Positions 9,048 through 62,597 of a stretch of 64,000 nucleotides of DNA are shown here, in pieces. The notes under the pieces were generated by a model, which saw nothing but the letters and a program-made list of their open reading frames with translations, had not been told where the DNA came from and ran no database searches. The stretch covers positions 2,992 to 66,991 of the forward strand of contig CAKPKR010000003.1 of the NCBI GenBank assembly GCA_934167465.1, read 5' to 3'. How positions within the stretch are numbered: position 1 is the stretch's first letter; each line of letters opens with the position of its first letter. Both the position numbers and the translations under genes were made by a program. The DNA comes from an uncultured Bacilli bacterium (GTDB lineage Bacteria > Bacillota_I > Bacilli_A > RF39 > UBA660).

Positions 9048-9917
9048 ATGAAAAAAATGTTAAGAAGCAGAATTTTTTTGGTAATAGTAACATTAATAAT
9101 AGGAATAAGTGGAACATTATATGCAGCAAACTCATATAACGCAAATGCTATTGTTTATAATTCAAGTGATGGAACAAGTAAAAATGTAAATGAAGCTTTG
9201 AATGATTTATATACAAAAAGTAAAAAAGAATATTATGTAAATGGATTAGTAGCATATTATAATCCTGTAACAGGATCAAAATGTAAAGTAAGCGAAGCAA
9301 CATCAAATACAAATAGCAAAGGAACATATACAGAGGTAAAAACAGGATGTATGAAATGGTATATTTTTAAAGAAGATTTTGATAATTATACAATGATATT
9401 AGATCACAATACTACTGCAAGAATAAAATGGAATGATAATAATGTAAATGTATCTTATGAAAATAGCAATATTAAAGCCGAAGTAGATAAGTTAGTAAGT
9501 GTCTCAAAATGGAAAAATACTCCTAGATTAATTACAGCAAATGAATTATCCAAAATAACAAATAATTCAACTTTTAATGATTCAGTTGAAAATAATTGGT
9601 ATTTTTTTGATAGTAATAGTCATAATCAAACTGCTACATCAAAGGGTGCAAGCACTTATTCTTGGCTATATGATTATACATCTTCTTGTTCAAGTTGGGG
9701 ATGTAATGTGGAAGATAATAATTATTATACTGGCGTTGGTACATCAGGAACTGGTTATTTTTATGGATATTGGACATCAACAACAAGGGGAACAGCTGGT
9801 GCTGGATATGCTGTTTGGGATGTTTTCCATCATGGTAATTTAGATGGTGGTGATGCTAATTATGATGCACGTGGTATTCGCCCAGTTATAACAATTTCAA
9901 AAACAATATTAAAATAA
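9048..9917 (+). CDS. variable secreted protein family member A0 (conserved N-terminal module plus DUF1566/Lcl-C-like C-terminus)
   Basis: The N-terminal 60 aa are shared with the genes at 32462, 33087, 33715, 41108, 42438, 52511 and 61881. The C-terminus, YWTSTT...AVWDVFHHGNL...ARGIRPV, fits the DUF1566 / FGE-fold ending. Confidence 0.6.
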   Translation: MKKMLRSRIFLVIVTLIIGISGTLYAANSYNANAIVYNSSDGTSKNVNEALNDLYTKSKKEYYVNGLVAYYNPVTGSKCKVSEATSNTNSKGTYTEVKTGCMKWYIFKEDFDNYTMILDHNTTARIKWNDNNVNVSYENSNIKAEVDKLVSVSKWKNTPRLITANELSKITNNSTFNDSVENNWYFFDSNSHNQTATSKGASTYSWLYDYTSSCSSWGCNVEDNNYYTGVGTSGTGYFYGYWTSTTRGTAGAGYAVWDVFHHGNLDGGDANYDARGIRPVITISKTILK

Positions 9918-10054: not shown

Positions 10055-11698
10055 ATGAAAAAAGGATTTACATTAATAGAATTATTGGCAGTAATAGTGA
10101 TATTGGCAGTAATAGCATTAATCGCAACACCAATAATATTAAATGTAATAGAAGAATCAAAAAAGGGAGCCGCTGAACAATCAGTAATCGGATATGTAAA
10201 CGGAATAGAGAATAATGTTTTAGTATCAGAATTGGATAATAGTTCTATAGAAGATGGAAGTTACAATATAAATGAAATAGAAGTAGAAGTAAAAGGAAAT
10301 AAACCTGATAGTGGGAATATAACAATAGAAAAAGGAATAGTAGTAGATGCAGTAATGTGTATGAGTGGATATAAAGTAATATATTCAAATAGTAAAGCGG
10401 AAGTCCAAGGAAAATGTGAAGGAAATCTAGTATATAGTGAAGGTATTTTAAATGGAACAGATCCAGTATTAGGTGAAAATATGATACCAGTAACAATAGA
10501 AAAAGATGGAACAGTAAAATATGCAGATATAAATAAGAAATGGTATAGTTATGGAAATAAAGAATGGGCAAATGCAGTAATATTAAATACAAGTAATAGT
10601 TATAATGTAGGAGATATAATACCAGAAAGTGAAATAGAATCATATTTTGTGTGGATACCAAGATATAGATATAAATTATTTAATGTAGATAATACAAGTA
10701 AAGATTCAAAAACATATACAAATTATAAAGATATACCAAGTAAAGCAGAGGAAATAGAAATAGTATTTGAAAATAAAGAAACAAAAATAAGTAACGGAAA
10801 TAAAAATGGTGAATATTTAATGCATCCAGCTTTTACATCATTTGAAAGTAATGGAATGTGGGTAGGAAAATTTGAAACAGGATATAAAGGAGCAACAACT
10901 ACTTCAACAGCTCAAGTAAACTCAAATGATTCTACAAAAGTAATAGTTAAACCAAACGTTTATAGTTGGAGAAGTATAACAGTAGGAAATATCTTTTTAA
11001 CAAGTTATAATTATAAAAGAGATTTGGATTCACATATGATGAAGAATACCGAATGGGGAGCAGTAGCATATCTTTCACATTCAAAATATGGAATAAATAG
11101 TGAAGTAAGAATAAATAATAATAGTGCACATATAACAGGTTATGCAAAGACTGAACAACCAACTTGTGGTTGGACAAATAGTAATGAAGAATGTAATAAG
11201 TTTGAAAGTACGGCTTTAAATCAAGATGGAACATATACAAAAAGATATAATACCGAAATTGGATATTTAGCAAGTACAACAGGAAATATAACCGGAATCT
11301 ATGATATGAGTGGCGGATCTAATGAATATATGGCAGCCTATATGGCAGGACAACTAGGAAATAGTGGACTAATACCAACCGATTATGATTCAAAATATTT
11401 TAATGTATATAATTCATCAAGTACAGTAACAAGTTATCAATATCGCATCTTAGGAGATGCAACTGGAGAAATGGGACCATTTACAAATTTAAAATCAAGT
11501 GGAAGTGATGGAGACAAAACCTCATATGCATCAAGTTGGTATGCCGACCGTTCGAACTTTGTTGACTCTGGTAGCCCTTGGTTCAACCGAGGCGGCGATT
11601 ACGGCCATGGTGTAGTTGCAGGTCAGTTCAACTTCCTTAGGAGCCCGGGTGGTACTTACAGTTACGTTGGCTTCCGCCTAGTTTTAACACCTCAATAA
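10055..11698 (+). CDS. type IV prepilin-like N-terminus fused to an FGE-sulfatase/DUF1566-like domain protein (paralog B1)
   Basis: MKKGFTLIELLAVIVIL is a class III prepilin signal: G then F, with E at +5. The middle and C-terminal parts, TEWGAVAYL, GIYDMSGGSNEY, RGG...VGFRLV, resemble the FGE-sulfatase fold. Confidence 0.6.
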   Translation: MKKGFTLIELLAVIVILAVIALIATPIILNVIEESKKGAAEQSVIGYVNGIENNVLVSELDNSSIEDGSYNINEIEVEVKGNKPDSGNITIEKGIVVDAVMCMSGYKVIYSNSKAEVQGKCEGNLVYSEGILNGTDPVLGENMIPVTIEKDGTVKYADINKKWYSYGNKEWANAVILNTSNSYNVGDIIPESEIESYFVWIPRYRYKLFNVDNTSKDSKTYTNYKDIPSKAEEIEIVFENKETKISNGNKNGEYLMHPAFTSFESNGMWVGKFETGYKGATTTSTAQVNSNDSTKVIVKPNVYSWRSITVGNIFLTSYNYKRDLDSHMMKNTEWGAVAYLSHSKYGINSEVRINNNSAHITGYAKTEQPTCGWTNSNEECNKFESTALNQDGTYTKRYNTEIGYLASTTGNITGIYDMSGGSNEYMAAYMAGQLGNSGLIPTDYDSKYFNVYNSSSTVTSYQYRILGDATGEMGPFTNLKSSGSDGDKTSYASSWYADRSNFVDSGSPWFNRGGDYGHGVVAGQFNFLRSPGGTYSYVGFRLVLTPQ

Positions 11699-11730
11699 AA
11701 ATAATGTTTAAACATTGTTTTTTTCTATAA
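11699..11730 (+). terminator. rho-independent terminator
   Basis: AATGTTTAAACATT is followed by T7. Confidence 0.55.
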
Positions 11731-32461: not shown

Positions 32462-32917
32462 ATGAAAAAAGTAATAAAAAATAGAATGTTTTTGGTGATT
32501 ATAATAACTATCATAGTTACTAGTGTAAGTGTATATGCCGCAACCACATATAAAGCAACAGATGTAATATATAAAGCAAGTGATGGAACAAGTATGAATG
32601 TAAATGATGCTTTAAATGAATTATATAATAAAAGTAATAATACAGGATATCCTGATATTAAAATTTATTATGATTCAGGTTGGGGTGGTGGTACTTGTCA
32701 AGCATTTGCTAATTTTAATATACCTAAAGGGTATAATTATTTAGAAGTAATACCACCATATGTTAGTTCTGAACATAGTTCATCTATGGAAGGAAAAATA
32801 ATTTCTCTTAATCAAAAGATTAATGTTTCGGAAAAAGATAGTGTACGAGTAAATGTATATAATGAAGCTACTAGTGGAGCTTGTAGAGCAAATGGTACTA
32901 TTGTACTTAGTCATTAA
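32462..32917 (+). CDS. variable secreted protein family member A1
   Basis: The conserved N-terminus MKKVIKNRMFLVII...YAATTYKATDVIYKASDGTSMNVNDALNELYNK is followed by a variable C-terminus. Confidence 0.65.
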   Translation: MKKVIKNRMFLVIIITIIVTSVSVYAATTYKATDVIYKASDGTSMNVNDALNELYNKSNNTGYPDIKIYYDSGWGGGTCQAFANFNIPKGYNYLEVIPPYVSSEHSSSMEGKIISLNQKINVSEKDSVRVNVYNEATSGACRANGTIVLSH

Positions 32918-33086: not shown

Positions 33087-33551
33087 ATGAAAAAAATAAT
33101 GAAAAGTAGAATATTTTTAGTAATTATAATAACTATCATAGTTGCTAGCGTAAGTGTATATGCCGCAACCACATATAAAGCAACAGATGTAATATATAAA
33201 GCAAGTGATGGAACAAGTATGAATGTAAATGATGCTTTAAATGAATTATATAATAAAAGTAATAATACAGGATATCCTGATATTACAATGTATCTTGATT
33301 CAGGTTATGTAGCAGCAGCTAATTGTGCAACCTCTGTTACTATTGATATACCTGATGGTTATAATTATTTAACTGTAACAACTACTGGTAATGTTTCACA
33401 AACTAAGATAGCAATGGATAGCACATATGTTACTTCTGGAGAGAAATATGATGTTTCAGAGAAAAATAGTATATTAATAAAAATTATACATTATAAAAAT
33501 TCTAGTGGTACGTATTCTAGAGCAATGGGAACTATTGTACTCAGTCATTAA
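33087..33551 (+). CDS. variable secreted protein family member A2
   Basis: A tandem paralog of A1 and A3. Confidence 0.65.
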   Translation: MKKIMKSRIFLVIIITIIVASVSVYAATTYKATDVIYKASDGTSMNVNDALNELYNKSNNTGYPDITMYLDSGYVAAANCATSVTIDIPDGYNYLTVTTTGNVSQTKIAMDSTYVTSGEKYDVSEKNSILIKIIHYKNSSGTYSRAMGTIVLSH

Positions 33552-33714: not shown

Positions 33715-34173
33715 ATGAAAAAAGTAATAAAAAATAGAATGTTTTTGGTGATTATAATAACTATCATAGTTACTAGTGTAAGTGTATATGCCGCAACCAC
33801 ATATAAAGCAACAGATGTAATATATAAAGCAAGTGATGGAACAAGTATGAATGTAAATGATGCTTTAAATGAATTATATAATAAAAGTAATAATACAGGA
33901 TATCCTAATATTACAATGTACCTTGATTCAGGTTATGTAGCAGCAGCTAATTGTTCTGATTCCATTACTATTGATATACCTGATGGGTATAATTATTTAA
34001 CTGTAACAATTAATTATCCATCTATTGATACAATAAAGATGGATGGAACAATTATTACTTCTGGAGAAAAATATAATGTTTCTGAAAAAGAAAAAGTATT
34101 AATAAGTGTATCACAAATAAATACGGGTGGAACTTATGTTAGAGCAAAAGGAACTATTGTTCTTACTCGTTAA
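33715..34173 (+). CDS. variable secreted protein family member A3
   Basis: A tandem paralog. Its C-terminus is GTIVLTR. Confidence 0.65.
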   Translation: MKKVIKNRMFLVIIITIIVTSVSVYAATTYKATDVIYKASDGTSMNVNDALNELYNKSNNTGYPNITMYLDSGYVAAANCSDSITIDIPDGYNYLTVTINYPSIDTIKMDGTIITSGEKYNVSEKEKVLISVSQINTGGTYVRAKGTIVLTR

Positions 34174-41107: not shown

Positions 41108-41992
41108 ATGAAAAAAATAATGAAAAGCAGAATATTTTTAGTAATAATTACAATGATTATATGTATAAGTGGAACTTTATATGCAGCGGTCACATATAAA
41201 GCAACAGATGTAGTATATAATGCCAATGATGGAACAAGTAAAAATGTAAGTGAGGCTTTAAATGAATTGTATGAAAATTGTTCTATTACAAAAATATATC
41301 CAAAAGTAACAATAACTACAGAAGCAGATACTGTTATAGGCCAGACAGTAATTGCAACATTAATCAAAGATAAAGATGGAAATTCTCCTAAAGAAGAATA
41401 TGTAGTGAAGGGTACATTAACTAATAGTACAACTTTAGTGTTAAAAAAAATAGGAACTTATAAAATTACAGCAAGTTCTTCTGATGGATTAGAAAATTAT
41501 AGCGATGAAATAACTGTTCAATACGATAATGTATATAATATTAATTATACTGTAAAAAAATATCTTTTTAATAATAGTGATGTAACTGCAGTAACTGGAG
41601 GTTGGGGAGTGATGTGGGAGGCATCTGGTGGTACACCTGGAGCTTCAACGTCTGGTGGTACTGTTAATTCGACATTGTATTTAACTTCTGGATCATCGGG
41701 TAAAAAAGATATGTATGCGAAAAATTCAATTGATTTAACAGGATGGAAAAGAATTGTTATAGTATGTACATATTATAATAATTTAAATAATGGATGGGCA
41801 GGACTTCATTTATATCAACCTGGAGGTTATTGGAGTAAAGATGCTAAATTAGTTGTTGGAGATTTAGGAGCTTTTTCAGTTGGAACATTTACTTATGATA
41901 TTTCTAGTTCTAAATACCAAAAAGAAGTTAGATTTGCATTATTAGCGGCTAGAGTTGAATGGAAAATATCTAAAATATATTTAGAAAAATAA
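41108..41992 (+). CDS. variable secreted protein family member A4 (294 aa)
   Basis: The family N-terminus is followed by a long unique C-terminal region. Confidence 0.65.
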   Translation: MKKIMKSRIFLVIITMIICISGTLYAAVTYKATDVVYNANDGTSKNVSEALNELYENCSITKIYPKVTITTEADTVIGQTVIATLIKDKDGNSPKEEYVVKGTLTNSTTLVLKKIGTYKITASSSDGLENYSDEITVQYDNVYNINYTVKKYLFNNSDVTAVTGGWGVMWEASGGTPGASTSGGTVNSTLYLTSGSSGKKDMYAKNSIDLTGWKRIVIVCTYYNNLNNGWAGLHLYQPGGYWSKDAKLVVGDLGAFSVGTFTYDISSSKYQKEVRFALLAARVEWKISKIYLEK

Positions 41993-42437: not shown

Positions 42438-42926
42438 ATGAAAAAAATAATAAAAAGCAGAATATTTTTAGTAATAATTACAATGATTATATGTATAAGT
42501 GGAACATTATATGCCGCATCAACATACAAAGCAAGTGATGTAGTATATAACGCAAGTGATGGTACATCAACCAATGTTGAAAGTGCTTTAAATGATTTAT
42601 ATAATAAAACAAAAGAATATAGTAATAATTTTTTTCCATTTAATGTAAATTATGTATATAATAATTATATTGGTTCAACAAATAAAATAACATTTACTAC
42701 TACAATAGAAACAGGAAATATAGATATAACAAAATATAAAATAGTTGGTGGAACAACAAGAGTAGAACCATGGCTAAATACTCAAGGAAAATATATTGAT
42801 ACAACAAGTTCAATAATTAGTTGCAAAGAAGGTATTACGACTATAGAAATAACAGTAACAATTGATGCGGCATCTAGTCTAGCAGGACCCGTTAACTATA
42901 GCGGTGCAATATATAGAATTGAATAA
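42438..42926 (+). CDS. variable secreted protein family member A5 (162 aa)
   Basis: The family N-terminus is present. Confidence 0.65.
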   Translation: MKKIIKSRIFLVIITMIICISGTLYAASTYKASDVVYNASDGTSTNVESALNDLYNKTKEYSNNFFPFNVNYVYNNYIGSTNKITFTTTIETGNIDITKYKIVGGTTRVEPWLNTQGKYIDTTSSIISCKEGITTIEITVTIDAASSLAGPVNYSGAIYRIE

Positions 42927-49681: not shown

Positions 49682-51328
49682 ATGAAAAAACAAGGATTTA
49701 CACTTATTGAGTTGTTAGCAGTTATCGTAATATTAGCTGTGATAGCTTTAATCGCAACACCAATAATCTTAAATGTAATTGAAGATTCAAAAAAGGGAGC
49801 AGCCGAACAATCAGTAATCGGATATATAAATGGAATAGAAAATAGTGTATTAGTATCAGAATTAGATAATAATTCATTAGATGATGGAAGTTATAATATA
49901 AATGAATTAAATGTCGAAGTAAAAGGAAATAAACCAAGTAGTGGTAATGTAACATTAGAAAATGGAATAGTAGTAGATGCTGTAATTTGTATGAATGGAT
50001 ATAGAATAAATTATGCAAATAGTAAAGCTGAAGTCCAAGGAAAATGTGATGAAGCATTAGTATATAGTGAAGGTATTTTAAATGGAACAGATCCCGTATT
50101 AGGTGACAATATGATACCAGTCACAATTGAAAAAGATGGAACAGTAAAGTATGCTGATATAAACAAAAAATGGTATAGTTATAGAAATAAAGAATGGGCA
50201 AATGCAGTAATATTAAATACAAGTAATACTTACAAAGTAGGAGATATAATACCAGAAAGTGAAATTGAATCATATTTTGTATGGATACCTAGATATAAAT
50301 ATAAATTATTTAATGTAGATAATACAAGTAAAGATTCAAAGACATATACAATATATACAGATGTACCAAGTAAAGCAGAGGAAATAGAAATAATATTTGA
50401 AAATAAAGAAACAAAAGAAAGTATAGGAACAAAGAATGGAGAATATTTAACCCACCCAGCCTTCACATCATTTGAAAGTAATGGAATGTGGGTAGGAAAG
50501 TTTGAAACAGGCTATAAAGGAGCAACTTCAACTACTTCAGCTCAAGTAAATAGTAATGATTTAAGTAAAGTAATAGTTAAACCTAATGTATATAGTTGGC
50601 GAAATATAACTATAAATAATATATTCTTAACAAGTTATAATTATAAAAGAAATTTAGATTCACATATGATGAAGAATACCGAATGGGGAGCAGTAGCATA
50701 CCTATCACATTCAAAATATGGAATTAATAATGATATAAGAATAAATAATAATAGTGCATATATAACAGGATATGCCAAGACAGAACAACCAACATGTGGA
50801 TATACAAATAGCAATGAAAATTGTAATAGATTTGAAAGTACATCATTAAATCAAGATGGGACATATACCAAGAGATATAATACGGAAATAGGCTATTTAG
50901 CTAGTACAACCGGAAATATTACGGGAATCTATGATATGAGTGGTGGGTCACATGAATATGTAGCAGCATATATGGCAGGAAACTTAGGAAGTAGTGGAAT
51001 AACACCAACCGATTATGATTCAAAATACTTTAATGTATATAATGCATCAAGTACACAAACAAGTTATCAATATCGAATTTTAGGAGATGCAACTGGCGAA
51101 ATGGGACCATTTACAAATTTAAAATCAACTGGGAGCAATGGTGTTAAGACAGCATATGTTTCAAGTTGGTACGCTTCCGACGCGAATTTCGTTGACTCTT
51201 CTTACCCTTGGTTCATTCGTGGCATCCATTTCATCGGTGGTGTACTTGCAGGTCAGTTCAACTTCGCTAGGAACACAGGAACTAATAATGGTTATATTGG
51301 TTTCCGTTTAGTTTTAACACCACAATAA
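49682..51328 (+). CDS. type IV prepilin-like N-terminus fused to an FGE-sulfatase/DUF1566-like domain protein (paralog B2)
   Basis: MKKQGFTLIELLAVIVIL is a prepilin signal. The protein is collinear with B1 throughout. The last 150 nt are GC-rich. Confidence 0.6.
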   Translation: MKKQGFTLIELLAVIVILAVIALIATPIILNVIEDSKKGAAEQSVIGYINGIENSVLVSELDNNSLDDGSYNINELNVEVKGNKPSSGNVTLENGIVVDAVICMNGYRINYANSKAEVQGKCDEALVYSEGILNGTDPVLGDNMIPVTIEKDGTVKYADINKKWYSYRNKEWANAVILNTSNTYKVGDIIPESEIESYFVWIPRYKYKLFNVDNTSKDSKTYTIYTDVPSKAEEIEIIFENKETKESIGTKNGEYLTHPAFTSFESNGMWVGKFETGYKGATSTTSAQVNSNDLSKVIVKPNVYSWRNITINNIFLTSYNYKRNLDSHMMKNTEWGAVAYLSHSKYGINNDIRINNNSAYITGYAKTEQPTCGYTNSNENCNRFESTSLNQDGTYTKRYNTEIGYLASTTGNITGIYDMSGGSHEYVAAYMAGNLGSSGITPTDYDSKYFNVYNASSTQTSYQYRILGDATGEMGPFTNLKSTGSNGVKTAYVSSWYASDANFVDSSYPWFIRGIHFIGGVLAGQFNFARNTGTNNGYIGFRLVLTPQ

Positions 51329-51362
51329 AGCAATGTTTAAAAAACATTGTTTTTTTCTAAAA
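51329..51362 (+). terminator. rho-independent terminator
   Basis: AATGTTTAAAAAACATT is followed by T7. Confidence 0.55.
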
Positions 51363-51508
51363 CTACTAATTTTCTTAGAAACAATAAAAAACTACCTTCA
51401 ATTTTAAAAATTGACTAGATTAATTTTAAAAATTGACTTATAAAATAACAAAATTGGTCATTTTACATTATAAAAAATAAATGATATTCTTTCTTCACCG
51501 GAGGAGGA

Positions 51509-52381
51509 ATGCTTATGCAAATAGAAAAAAATACATTCTATACTTGTAAATATGATAGACCATTCAAAGAAATATTTTTAAATGAACAAAATAAACATTT
51601 ATTAAAAGGATTATTAGAAACAATACTAAAAACAGAAATTGATAAAATAGAACTAAAGCCAAGCGAATTAAATAGTAATAATATAAATATAAAAAGAAAA
51701 TATTTAGATGCATTAATATATGTAAAAGGTAAAAAAATAGGAATAGAAGTAAATTCAAATGCTGAAGAAAATTATTTAAGACCAAGAAATGCATCATTTA
51801 TATTTAATATATATTCATCACATACATTAGTAAGTGAAACATATGATGAAAAAACCGATATAATTCAAATTAATTTATCATATAACTTAAAAGATAAAAA
51901 GAATATAAGAATATATAAATTAAGAGATGAAGAAGGAAAAGAATATATTGAAAATTTATATATTTACGAAATAAATATGGATTACTATAGGAAACTATGG
52001 TACAATAAAAAAGAAGAAGTAAAAGAAGCAAAATATCTAGTAATGTTAGATTTAGAAGAAAAAGAATTAAAGGAATTTGCAAAAAACGATAGAGAGGTGA
52101 ATGAATATATGGAAAAATTGGAGAATTTAAATAGTAATCCAGAATTTTACCAATATATGACACACGAAGAAGATGAAAGAAAGATACACAACTCTATGAT
52201 GTATGAAGCAGAGCAAAAAGGTCTAGAAAAAGGTATAGAACAAGGTTTAGAACAAGGAATTGAAGAAGGAAAAAATGCCGAAAAAATAGCTACAGCGACA
52301 AACTTTAAAAATCTTGGCATAGATATTGAAACTATATCAAAAGCAACTGGTCTATCAAAAGAAGAAATAGAAAAATTATAA
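51509..52381 (+). CDS. Rpn/YhgA-family PD-(D/E)XK recombination-promoting nuclease (putative transposase)
   Basis: The N-terminus YDRPFKEIFLNEQNKH...DALIYVKGKKIGIEV is present. The characteristic C-terminal tail has KGLEKGIEQGLEQGIEEG repeats plus IATATNFKNLGIDIETISKATGLSKEEIEKL. Confidence 0.6.
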   Translation: MLMQIEKNTFYTCKYDRPFKEIFLNEQNKHLLKGLLETILKTEIDKIELKPSELNSNNINIKRKYLDALIYVKGKKIGIEVNSNAEENYLRPRNASFIFNIYSSHTLVSETYDEKTDIIQINLSYNLKDKKNIRIYKLRDEEGKEYIENLYIYEINMDYYRKLWYNKKEEVKEAKYLVMLDLEEKELKEFAKNDREVNEYMEKLENLNSNPEFYQYMTHEEDERKIHNSMMYEAEQKGLEKGIEQGLEQGIEEGKNAEKIATATNFKNLGIDIETISKATGLSKEEIEKL

Positions 52382-52510: not shown

Positions 52511-53122
52511 ATGAAAAAAGTAATAAAAAGTAGAATATTTTTAGTAATAATTACGATGATTATATGTATAAGCGGAACATTATATGCAGCTAATACATAT
52601 AAAGCATCAGATGTAGTATATAATACCAGTGATGGAACAAGTAAAAATGTAAGTGAAGTCTTAAACGAGTTATATGATAAATCAAATAACAATTCTGATT
52701 TAGAATTAATATATGATGCAATGGTTTCTAAAGGAGTAACACCATCTAGTAAAAAGATAGATGATATTATAATGGCAATCAAAACAAAGATGGGAGTTTC
52801 AACTCATATAGCATCTGTTAGATTTGCAAATAGAGCCACTAATAGTTCTTCATATACAAGGGGTAGAATGTATTTATATGACTCTAGTGGGACAGTACTA
52901 TCATCTAGTTGGGCAGAAGGATCAGGAGAATCAACAATTTATGGTGAGGATGTTAGAGTCAGTTCTGGTACAATTTTATATGCTGGTTTTTCATCAGCAT
53001 CTGATAAAAATACAAGAGGAATATTGCAGCTTGTTGTTGATGGAAATGTGGTAACATCTGTATTTGTTGAAACAAGCAAAGGAACGTCAAATACTAATAA
53101 AATTACAGTTTTGGATTCTTAA
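52511..53122 (+). CDS. variable secreted protein family member A6 (203 aa)
   Basis: The family N-terminus is present. Confidence 0.65.
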   Translation: MKKVIKSRIFLVIITMIICISGTLYAANTYKASDVVYNTSDGTSKNVSEVLNELYDKSNNNSDLELIYDAMVSKGVTPSSKKIDDIIMAIKTKMGVSTHIASVRFANRATNSSSYTRGRMYLYDSSGTVLSSSWAEGSGESTIYGEDVRVSSGTILYAGFSSASDKNTRGILQLVVDGNVVTSVFVETSKGTSNTNKITVLDS

Positions 53123-61880: not shown

Positions 61881-62597
61881 ATGAAAAAAATAATAAAAAA
61901 TAAAATAATTTTAATAGTAATATTATGTATAATAAGTTGTGGTATAGGAGTATATGCTGCAACAACATATAAAGCAAGTGATATAGTATATAACGCAAGT
62001 GACGGAACAAGTATAAATGTAAATGATGCTTTAAATGATATTTATACAATCAAAACACAAGGTAATGCAACAGAAAATGATATTTTGAATGGAAAAACAG
62101 CTGTCGTAAAAGGAAAAATGATAACTGGTACATTTAAAAATAATTTTACCTTTGAAACAATAGAAAACCCGGTTGGTACATCTATTATGGATTATAATGA
62201 GAAAAGAAAAGATAAATATTTGACTTTTACACTAGGTGAAAGGTTAAGTTACAATGATACTAATTATTCTGATTATATGTGTTATATTTATCCTATAGAT
62301 TTAACTAATGTTTCAACACTCATCTTGTATCAATGGAATTATATATCGATGCATTTTACAGTAGCAATTTCATTATTTGATACTCCATTATATTCTAGGC
62401 AAGAAATAATAGATAATGCATTTGCAACGTGGACATATTCGACATCAGGTAGTAAAAAGGCATCTAATTACAATATTAAAGAAATTGATGTAAGAAATGT
62501 AACTGGTAAGAAGTATATCAATATTGCAGTTGTTAGTAAGAATAATTCTTCTGATGAATATTATATGCTTACTAAAAATATAATATCGTTTAATTAA
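61881..62597 (+). CDS. variable secreted protein family member A7 (238 aa)
   Basis: It is the most diverged family N-terminus: MKKIIKNKIILIVIL...YAATTYKASDIVYNASDGTSINVNDALNDIY. Confidence 0.6.
   Translation: MKKIIKNKIILIVILCIISCGIGVYAATTYKASDIVYNASDGTSINVNDALNDIYTIKTQGNATENDILNGKTAVVKGKMITGTFKNNFTFETIENPVGTSIMDYNEKRKDKYLTFTLGERLSYNDTNYSDYMCYIYPIDLTNVSTLILYQWNYISMHFTVAISLFDTPLYSRQEIIDNAFATWTYSTSGSKKASNYNIKEIDVRNVTGKKYINIAVVSKNNSSDEYYMLTKNIISFN

Follow-up and report, generated by a model that had tools for sequence, protein, structure and literature searches.

Two Pilin-Like Genes with GC-Rich 3′ Ends

The DNA analyzed here is a stretch of 64,000 nucleotides from an uncultured Bacilli bacterium (contig CAKPKR010000003.1 of assembly GCA_934167465.1), referred to below as the window. 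It carries two paralogous genes for prepilin-type proteins, B1 and B2, the 3′ ends of which are GC-rich, and we consider it very likely that these ends are the variable regions (VRs) of a diversity-generating retroelement (DGR). In a DGR, the RNA of a template repeat (TR) is reverse-transcribed with misincorporation opposite adenines, and the cDNA replaces the VR, anchored at its GC-rich 3′ end. The two genes and the features that concern this interpretation are the following.

10055..11698, + strand: B1, gene for a 547-aa prepilin-type protein, the C-terminal domain of which has the C-type-lectin fold of DGR variable proteins (open reading frame (ORF), profiles, model)
10055..10130, + strand: prepilin-type N-terminal cleavage/methylation motif of B1 and start of the hydrophobic helix, MKKGFTLIELLAVIVILAVIALIAT (profile matches)
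11540..11698, + strand: VR of B1, which aligns to the TRs of related cassettes, up to the stop codon (six-TR alignment, composition)
11608..11635, + strand: invariant scaffold shared with B2, GGTGTA-N-TTGCAGGTCAGTTCAACTTC, which includes the 18-mer described below (sequence comparison)
11666..11689, + strand: GC-rich 3′ end of the VR, GTTGGCTTCCGCCTAGTTTTAACA, at the position of a homing element resembling IMH (initiation of mutagenic homing) (alignment; putative homing function)
49682..51328, + strand: B2, gene for a 548-aa paralog of B1 with the same architecture (ORF, profiles, alignment)
51170..51328, + strand: VR of B2, partly decayed towards host composition (GC 0.43, GC3 0.385, TR comparison)

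When B1 was scanned in 150-nt windows, the GC content peaked at 0.52 (11500-11649), the rest of the gene ranging from 0.22 to 0.35. Read in frame, the last 52 sense codons of B1 (11540-11695) had a GC content of 0.519 and a GC content at third codon positions (GC3) of 0.481, compared to 0.291 and 0.115 upstream. The corresponding values for B2 were 0.429 and 0.385 in the last 52 sense codons (51170-51325) and 0.292 and 0.131 upstream. Among all 172-nt windows of the 64 kb (mean GC 0.253, standard deviation 0.051), the top two peaks were those at 11510 (0.523) and 51129 (0.448). An earlier note, made from the sequence alone, had located both GC-rich stretches at about these coordinates, in agreement with the sliding-window and in-frame measurements. 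Its estimate of 45-50% GC for the gene ends is slightly too high for B2, and its 25% GC for the genes has to be corrected to 29%.

The peptides encoded by the two ends were re-encoded in 20,000 simulations using the codon usage of the window itself (14,242 codons, GC3 0.108). The expected GC content was 0.368 ± 0.014 for B1 (z = 10.7) and 0.323 ± 0.014 for B2 (z = 7.7), and the observed values were reached in 0 of the 20,000 simulations. These results indicated that the GC excess is a matter of codon choice and not of amino acid composition; chance and amino acid composition were thus ruled out as its source. The use of rare codons, which the earlier note had also pointed out, was evident in the B1 VR, where 24 of the 52 codons are chosen in fewer than 10% of cases within their synonymous family in the host (41 of 494 upstream); they include GGC, AAC, TAC, GAC, AGC, CAG, CCG, and CGC. 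The adenine fraction of B1 drops from 0.45 upstream to 0.19 in the VR, and the AT skew goes negative. The exact 18-mer said to be common to both genes, GCAGGTCAGTTCAACTTC, is present in exactly two copies in the window, at 11618 and 51248 (chance expectation 0.01), and GAGCCCGGGTGG was found in B1.

DGR Cassettes Beside Homologs in Related Genomes

Homologs of B1 in related gut Bacilli are accompanied by DGR cassettes. In the metagenome-assembled genome (MAG) GCA_028694645.1, the gene for P0012, a protein 58% identical to B1, has its 3′ end repeated downstream in a 160-nt stretch of 91% identity. After this repeat there are a 121-aa ORF resembling MutS domain I (MSL), a bAvd gene, and an RVT_1 reverse transcriptase (RT) gene. 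The cassette Avd scored above the NCBIfam DGR-Avd cutoff (NF033474, 82.8 bits versus 80), and the RT has the motifs IGNYTSQ and YMDD. Further VR/TR pairs were collected by scanning GTDB genomes, and then JGI metagenomes, with the generic pattern GTTGACTCTNNTNNCCCTTGGTTCA. The scan of GTDB genomes identified eight loci, none of them from the genome of the window, and that of the JGI metagenomes identified five loci from other species, two of them with cassettes, and no cognate TR. Cassettes are intact or have a split RT gene at the loci L007, L012, L022, and L025, and are decayed at L009, L010, and L026.

In the five cognate VR/TR pairs, 78-94% of the mismatches are located at TR adenines (p 8e-4 to 7e-11). 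The six TRs, from different MAGs, are 85-97% identical to one another. Each of them contains 11-12 AAY codons among 47-50 (12/50 in four of the six), and these codons hold most of the TR adenines. At L004, L007, L009, and L010 the VR and TR are the same through GG(C/T)T(C/T)CCGCCT(C/T)GTT, and their identity ends only within a few bases of the stop codon, on one side of it or the other. The GC spike is also common to the homologs, with GC3 values in the last 156 nt of 0.52 (L004) and 0.58 (L009), compared to 0.12-0.13 upstream. At L004, a 13-bp GC-rich hairpin (−27 kcal/mol, z −4.5) lies about 35 nt past the stop codon of the VR. The earlier note had left room for a local accident, to be recognized by homologs that encode the same residues with AT-rich codons and lack conserved nucleotide identity; the homologs keep both the GC-rich codons and the conserved nucleotides. 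A comparison between species of codon identity at conserved residues, VR versus upstream, was uninformative, because the AT codon bias raises the upstream identity too.

The whole unit at L004 is present a second time, as L005, on the same 215-kb contig of GCA_028694645.1 (JAQVKM010000001.1), in different surroundings. It consists of a serine recombinase gene, a 142-aa ORF, the pilin-like target gene, the TR, and the MSL, Avd, and RT genes. This arrangement suggests that the DGR travels with its target in a mobile or duplicated unit.

The RT gene is split or missing at L007, L010, and L025-L029. At L007, L025, L027, L028, and L029 the interruptions appear as two-piece tblastn matches, and the RT genes of L027-L029 were split into two ORFs by the gene callers. 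These interruptions could be due to pseudogenization or to assembly errors.

Differences between B1 and B2 at Template-Adenine Positions

All six TRs gave gap-free alignments with the B1 and B2 ends, from TAY GCN (at 11540 and 51170, respectively) to just before the stop codon. The scaffold stretch shared by the two genes is also kept in the non-coding TRs of other species (TTGC-N-GGTCAGTTCAAYTTC). The adenine-specific pattern of variation, tested against these six foreign TRs, was found in B1 and B2. Compared to the TR of L009, B1 has mismatches at 16 of 40 TR adenines and at 11 of 110 other positions (p 7e-5); for B2 the comparison with the TRs gave 15 of 40 and 21 of 110. The deviant codons of B1 fall on AAY codons of the TR, AAT being changed to CGT, GAT, CAT, and CTT, and AAC to AGC, GGC, and TAC. 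The GC-rich end of the VR, GGCTTCCGCC, is kept in B1 and eroded in B2, where it reads GGTTTCCGTT. The Gly-Gly of the scaffold is also replaced in B2 (RGIHFIGG).

B1 and B2 have a mean column identity of 92% according to the alignment tool, and 12.6% of the aligned upstream nucleotides differ. The similarity is lowest, and drops sharply, in the last ~160 nt. The differences distribute among first, second, and third codon positions as 17/13/13 in the VR versus 38/31/118 upstream, where most affect the third position. First and second positions are thus over-represented among the VR differences (Fisher p = 1.3e-4). Sorted by their state in the six TRs, 18 of the 33 columns that are always adenine differ between B1 and B2, compared to 20 of the 104 that are never adenine (p = 2e-4). 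A comparison of B2 with its ortholog at L030 gave a similar distribution, with differences at 17 of 33 always-A and 16 of 104 never-A columns. Never-A columns differ between B1 and B2 at a rate of 19%, at least the upstream rate of 12.6%, and therefore no common template has overwritten both genes since their divergence. A conserved gene with a scrambled 3′ end, in which first- and second-position changes lie between invariant oligomers, is the signature of a DGR VR.

A group of related proteins (cluster 5: P0006, P0139, P0140, and P0141) was also compared. P0006 differs from P0139 at 1% of upstream and 29% of VR positions, and from P0140 at 3.2% of upstream positions but at none in the VR. 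It seems that, within a genome, the upstream parts of paralogs evolve in concert, the VRs being locus-specific and stable.

Proposed Origin of the GC-Rich Ends

The following sequence of events would generate the features described above. A cassette next to the target gene would consist of the TR, the small MSL gene, Avd, and RT. The TR would be transcribed and reverse-transcribed, with random bases inserted opposite the template adenines, and the cDNA would then be written over the final ~150 nt of the target, with the GC-rich 3′ end as its anchor. In a VR repeatedly overwritten in this way, it is the template that determines the nucleotide sequence, so that the VR would carry the nucleotides of the template rather than the codon preferences of the host. 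Scaffold residues would be encoded largely without adenine (TTC, GGC, CGC, TCG, CCT, TGG), and the 12 diversified positions would correspond to template AAY codons, varying at the first and second bases of the codon. Against a host GC3 of 0.11, such a template sequence would stand out as an adenine-poor GC spike in which rare codons (such as TTC, GGC, CGC, TCG, CCG, CAG, and AAC) are used and exact oligomers common to the copies alternate with scrambled codons.

Status of the Cassette at the Two Loci

No cassette was found in the window. A search for a TR inside it, using the 18-mer with up to 3 mismatches and blastn (word size 7, both 3′ ends), returned only the two VRs. The RT, Avd, and MSL proteins of L004 gave nothing better than E = 0.37 in tblastn searches of the window, and Pfam scans of 28 of its ORFs gave housekeeping genes or no match, with no RT and no Avd. 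The flanks, covered over 10 kb in related contigs, likewise yielded no TR, MSL, Avd, or RT. Behind B1 and B2, the intergenic regions contain no cassette remnants, only unrelated repeated segments. Three patterns had no matches in a viral collection, and the lineage-specific pattern TTGGYTTCCGYYTAGTTTTAACA had none in the viral or JGI metagenome collections.

The DNA downstream of B2 includes a segment that identifies the locus in a sister lineage.

51364..51789, + strand: B2-downstream locus marker (91% identity to L009 426-1)

At L009, in the sister lineage, a VR-TR pair and an MSL/RT remnant are located between the target gene and the DNA that resembles the region downstream of B2. The remnant, P0142 (L009 442-864, − strand), is a 140-aa ORF (119 aa from the second ATG) with the first 14 residues of MSL and the C-terminal ~105 residues of RT, a deletion remnant of the cassette. 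Since this remnant occupies the orthologous locus, a cassette was very probably present at the B2 locus, too, in the past. The search for the closest intact RT with the L009 RT remnant returned only C-terminal RT fragments. Six of these open at or near YMDD and two, P0142 and P0145, join the start of MSL to the tail of RT; two fragments were traced to the interrupted RT genes of L027-L029, and none came from the species of the window. P0145 comes from another lineage, is 64% identical to P0142, and has apparently the same MSL-RT junction. The fusion remnant may therefore be old, and perhaps maintained.

The two VRs also seem to be static. An identical B1 protein was found on 10 contigs, and three other members of its 90% cluster have the same VR; members of the B2 cluster differ by two ordinary point changes. 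The VRs thus gave no sign of ongoing diversification across samples. Related clusters include identical VRs on proteins that are 3-7% apart at upstream residues, and distinct VRs on proteins that are 1% apart, the latter being most likely paralogs with homogenized upstream parts. When the never-A columns were inspected for states absent from all six TRs, B1 had 4 (2 of them GC-to-AT), B2 had 13 (11), and the B2 ortholog at L001 had 15 (13). The GC3 of the VR follows the series 0.52-0.58 (cassette present), 0.48 (B1), 0.385 (B2), and 0.25 (L001). Taken together, these observations make it reasonably probable that both VRs are now orphaned and frozen, the cassette being absent from both loci in this segment. 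B2 would have lost its template earlier and be decaying towards AT, and B1 would have been written more recently.

Assessment of the Interpretation and of the Alternatives

Several points weigh against this interpretation. The assignment of columns to adenine classes rests on the TRs of other species, and no cognate TR was found for this genome. B1 and B2 mismatch these foreign TRs at 10-26% of the non-adenine positions, a level similar to the divergence among TRs (3-15%) for B1 and higher for B2. A GC-rich downstream hairpin of the L004 type, which by eye is also present at L009, is missing after B1 and B2, where there are only AT-rich hairpins. Avoidance of adenine allows T-rich codons too, and the preference of the template for C and G is described here without an explanation. 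Finally, the frozen state is deduced from a limited number of assembled contigs and not from read-level variation.

It is conceivable, although on balance doubtful, that B1 and possibly B2 are live remote targets, rewritten in trans by an intact DGR located elsewhere in the genome, outside the 64 kb. Targets more than 100 kb from the RT have been documented for cellular DGRs (PMC5758913). The B1 VR is near pristine, as judged by its GC3 and by the only four never-A states found outside the six TRs, it departs from the nearest TR at 10% of non-adenine positions, a value in the range seen among TRs of different species, and GGCTTCCGCC is intact at its 3′ end. However, a gene under active rewriting is difficult to reconcile with the exact B1 protein on 10 contigs and one VR among all members of its cluster, or with VR alleles shared by related clusters across 3-7% divergence at upstream residues. 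The rate of never-A differences between B1 and B2, at least as high as the upstream rate, also argues against resetting from one template, and TTGGYTTCCGYYTAGTTTTAACA was without match in the viral and JGI collections. Furthermore, the closest cassette-bearing relative found, L009, has a deletion remnant, and the RT genes of L007, L010, and L025-L029 are split or missing.

The explanations contemplated by the earlier note, a recombination or gene-conversion target, an RNA element, or the import of a C-terminal cassette, were correct in that a templated, conversion-like replacement of a cassette is what the data point to; the specific forms proposed found no support. A conversion tract between B1 and B2, or between them and silent cassettes as in Neisseria pilE/pilS or a shufflon, would be in line with two paralogs 40 kb apart that have exact 18- to 28-mers in common, and with sister-strain paralogs such as P0006 and P0139, which are homogenized upstream and distinct in their VRs. 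Nonetheless, B1 and B2 resemble each other least over their final 160 nt, the opposite of what recent conversion would leave, and never-A columns are no closer than the upstream sequence (19% versus 12.6%). The shared oligomers are found family-wide, including the non-coding TRs of other species, nowhere else in the window is the region repeated in part or in inverted form, and no recombinase gene adjoins B1 or B2 (the serine recombinases of L004/L005 flank the whole DGR unit). We therefore regard conversion as very improbable. The import of an exon-like C-terminal cassette from a GC-richer donor by ordinary horizontal transfer, not yet ameliorated and with no retroelement involved, merits just as little credence. 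The foreign composition is indeed restricted to the gene end, and B2 is ameliorating, but the composition break occurs at the same codon across many MAGs, where it coincides with the VR/TR repeat beside Avd and RT, the differences among copies cluster at template adenines, and the lectin-fold domain itself shows host composition in its upstream part. A structured RNA or cis-regulatory element embedded where the mRNA ends would explain nucleotide conservation beyond the requirement of the protein, yet it is the least credible of these explanations. The folding z-scores were +0.46 (B1) and +0.40 (B2), with 130 and 124 of 200 dinucleotide shuffles folding at least as well, no Rfam family reached the threshold anywhere in the window, and the variation tracks template adenines and codon positions 1 and 2 rather than paired columns.

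Proteins and Predicted Fold

The N-terminus of B1 and B2 matched pilin profiles above their cutoffs (TIGR02532, 32.5 bits, cutoff 16.3; PF07963 N_methyl, 28 and 30.6 bits, cutoff 21.2). The mark of type IV pilins and pseudopilins, a G/FTLIE motif followed by a hydrophobic helix, is present, and in the B1 model the helix spans residues 7-61. The family profile matched the N-terminal helices of type IV pilins in PDB and, faintly, 5VF4. Genes for a prepilin peptidase or an assembly ATPase/platform did not turn up in the scanned ORFs of the window, nor in the flanks. Judging from the N-terminal motif alone, the lectin tip would presumably be exposed at the cell surface or carried by a pilus or pseudopilus.

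The AlphaFold model of B1 (predicted local distance difference test (pLDDT) 83, predicted template modeling score (pTM) 0.84) shows three parts, namely a long helix at the N-terminus, a beta-rich domain in the middle, and a domain at the C-terminus. The significant matches of the model in PDB were only three chains of 5VF4, the DGR variable protein of Thermus aquaticus (TaqVP), the best of them with an E value of 2.7e-9 and a probability of 1.0. Weak FGE-sulfatase matches were obtained for 27 of 82 family members. The VR occupies the extreme 3′ end of the ORF, its last 52 codons, and the stretch that it encodes is the predicted ligand-binding face of the C-type-lectin-fold domain.

The family is large. 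Of 8,000 candidates scored, 7,994 reached E ≤ 0.001, and the named matches were uncultured Bacilli MAGs. The C-termini of 120 homologs have a fixed scaffold, SWYxxxSxFVxSSxPWFxRGGxxxxGVLAGQFxFxRxTGxxxxxxGFRLVL, with hypervariable positions between the conserved ones. Short forms of 330-340 aa were found in other strains (L030 2512-3504, L016 18337-19359, and the proteins P0023 and P0133). In the 330-aa form the pilin N-terminus is fused directly to the lectin domain, residues ~42-259 being gone and the full VR kept. At L016 the place of B1 between sigE and mutS is taken by an N_methyl gene of 340 aa.

Neighboring Sequence

Both genes are followed immediately by terminator-like hairpins; the one after B1 was under the GC criterion of the terminator scan.

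11697..11729, + strand: AT-rich hairpin and T-run right after the B1 stop codon, terminator-like (fold −6.9 kcal/mol, z −3.46)
51327..51360, + strand: AT-rich hairpin and T-run right after the B2 stop codon, terminator-like (fold −9.2 kcal/mol, z −3.78)

Further downstream of B1, the segment 11732-12134 is 80% identical to L019 9515-9915 and to a segment of L021; the L019/L021 segment sits upstream of a homolog of the window ORF 61881-62597. The first ~140 nt after B2 (51329-51466) recur at 92% identity after an unrelated 134-aa gene in L016 and L018. The intergenic stretches after B1 and B2 look like repeated intergenic modules. A gene of the PD-(D/E)XK nuclease family, transposase-like (PF12784, E 1.7e-10), is located directly after B2 (51509-52381, + strand). 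The related contig L019 has the C-terminal part of a homolog at its start, and L009 has only the first ~270 nt of the gene.

The window also contains seven paralogous genes for small proteins, all on the + strand (9048-9917, 32462-32917, 33087-33551, 33715-34173, 41108-41992, 42438-42926, and 52511-53122). One of them lies just upstream of B1, and another just downstream of B2 and its PD-(D/E)XK neighbor. They share an N-terminus of ~60 aa, MKKxxKxRxFLVI...YAAxTYKAxDVxYxxxDGTSxNVxxALNELY, and have unrelated C-termini. The seven proteins are probably secreted. Pfam scans of three of them (9048, 41108, and 52511) gave nothing above the cutoff.

Comparison with Known Systems

C-type-lectin-fold DGR variable proteins also include Mtd of the Bordetella phage and TvpA of Treponema. 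As in these proteins, the VR of B1 encodes the last ~50 residues and the conserved scaffold ends in GFRLV. TaqVP, the best structural match of the B1 model, shares with it ~16% sequence identity, and the TM-scores were 0.28 (query length) and 0.38 (target length), these low values being due to the additional domains of B1. TaqVP has neither the type-IV-pilin-like N-terminal helix nor the beta-rich middle domain.

Pilin C-terminal variation by DNA rearrangement occurs in PilV of the R64 shufflon and in Neisseria, by conversion between pilE and pilS. The variation in B1 and B2 likewise affects the exposed C-terminal part of a type IV pilin-like protein. Unlike in R64 and Neisseria, invertible segments, silent cassettes, and an adjacent recombinase are all lacking here, and the positions that vary are those of template adenines.

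Cassettes with MSL and Avd correspond to "architecture D" (target, TR, MSL, avd, RT) as described by Wu et al. (2018, Nucleic Acids Res 46:11, PMC5758913). The loci L004, L005, L007, L012, L022, and L025 match it part for part, with MSL, Avd, an RT with IGxxxSQ and YMDD motifs, and a TR right after the VR that has adenine-specific mismatches. The window differs in that it has the VRs alone, TR, MSL, Avd, and RT not having been found in the 64 kb. Remote or non-adjacent DGR targets are known in Treponema denticola and Legionella (summarized in PMC5758913), and B1 and B2 resemble them in being VR genes far from any RT, at core chromosomal loci. However, those targets have a TR in the same genome that differs at adenines only, whereas here no cognate TR was found and the VRs are apparently static.

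DGR-diversified type V pilus adhesins have been described in Bacteroides (bioRxiv 10.1101/2024.11.15.621889), and a 2024 survey mentions in passing a secretion-pathway G-type domain ("GspG-type pilin") among rare VR-bearing domains (PMC11661182). As in the Bacteroides adhesins, the DGR would act in gut bacteria on a surface protein associated with a pilus, diversifying its tip; the proteins described here are instead type IV or pseudopilin-like, and they belong to the phylum Bacillota. No dedicated description of the pilin-like DGR-target family was found in the searchable literature.

Significance

The mechanism of DGRs is already known; what B1 and B2 add are pilin-like, locally orphaned targets of the MSL/Avd cassette class. 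The loci compared illustrate stages of cassette decay, from intact through RT-split and deletion remnant to absent. In very AT-rich genomes, DGR VRs are visible as short, adenine-poor GC islands at gene ends, even after the retroelement has been lost, and this mark could serve to find orphaned or remote DGR targets that RT-centered pipelines miss.

The results also flag a large family of pilin-like, lectin-tipped surface proteins of uncultured gut Bacilli as DGR targets, which is relevant to the attachment of these bacteria to hosts, food particles, and other cells. A broader proposal, which we put forward as speculative, is that this very large and essentially undescribed family (>7,900 matches) consists of hypervariable pilus or pseudopilus adhesins, type-IV-pilin-like with a lectin tip written by the MSL/Avd DGR, and that lineages repeatedly lose the cassette and keep a frozen VR at core loci, B1 being perhaps serviced in trans. 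If this proposal is true, the GC island would be a sequence-only marker of present or past DGR targets in AT-rich genomes.

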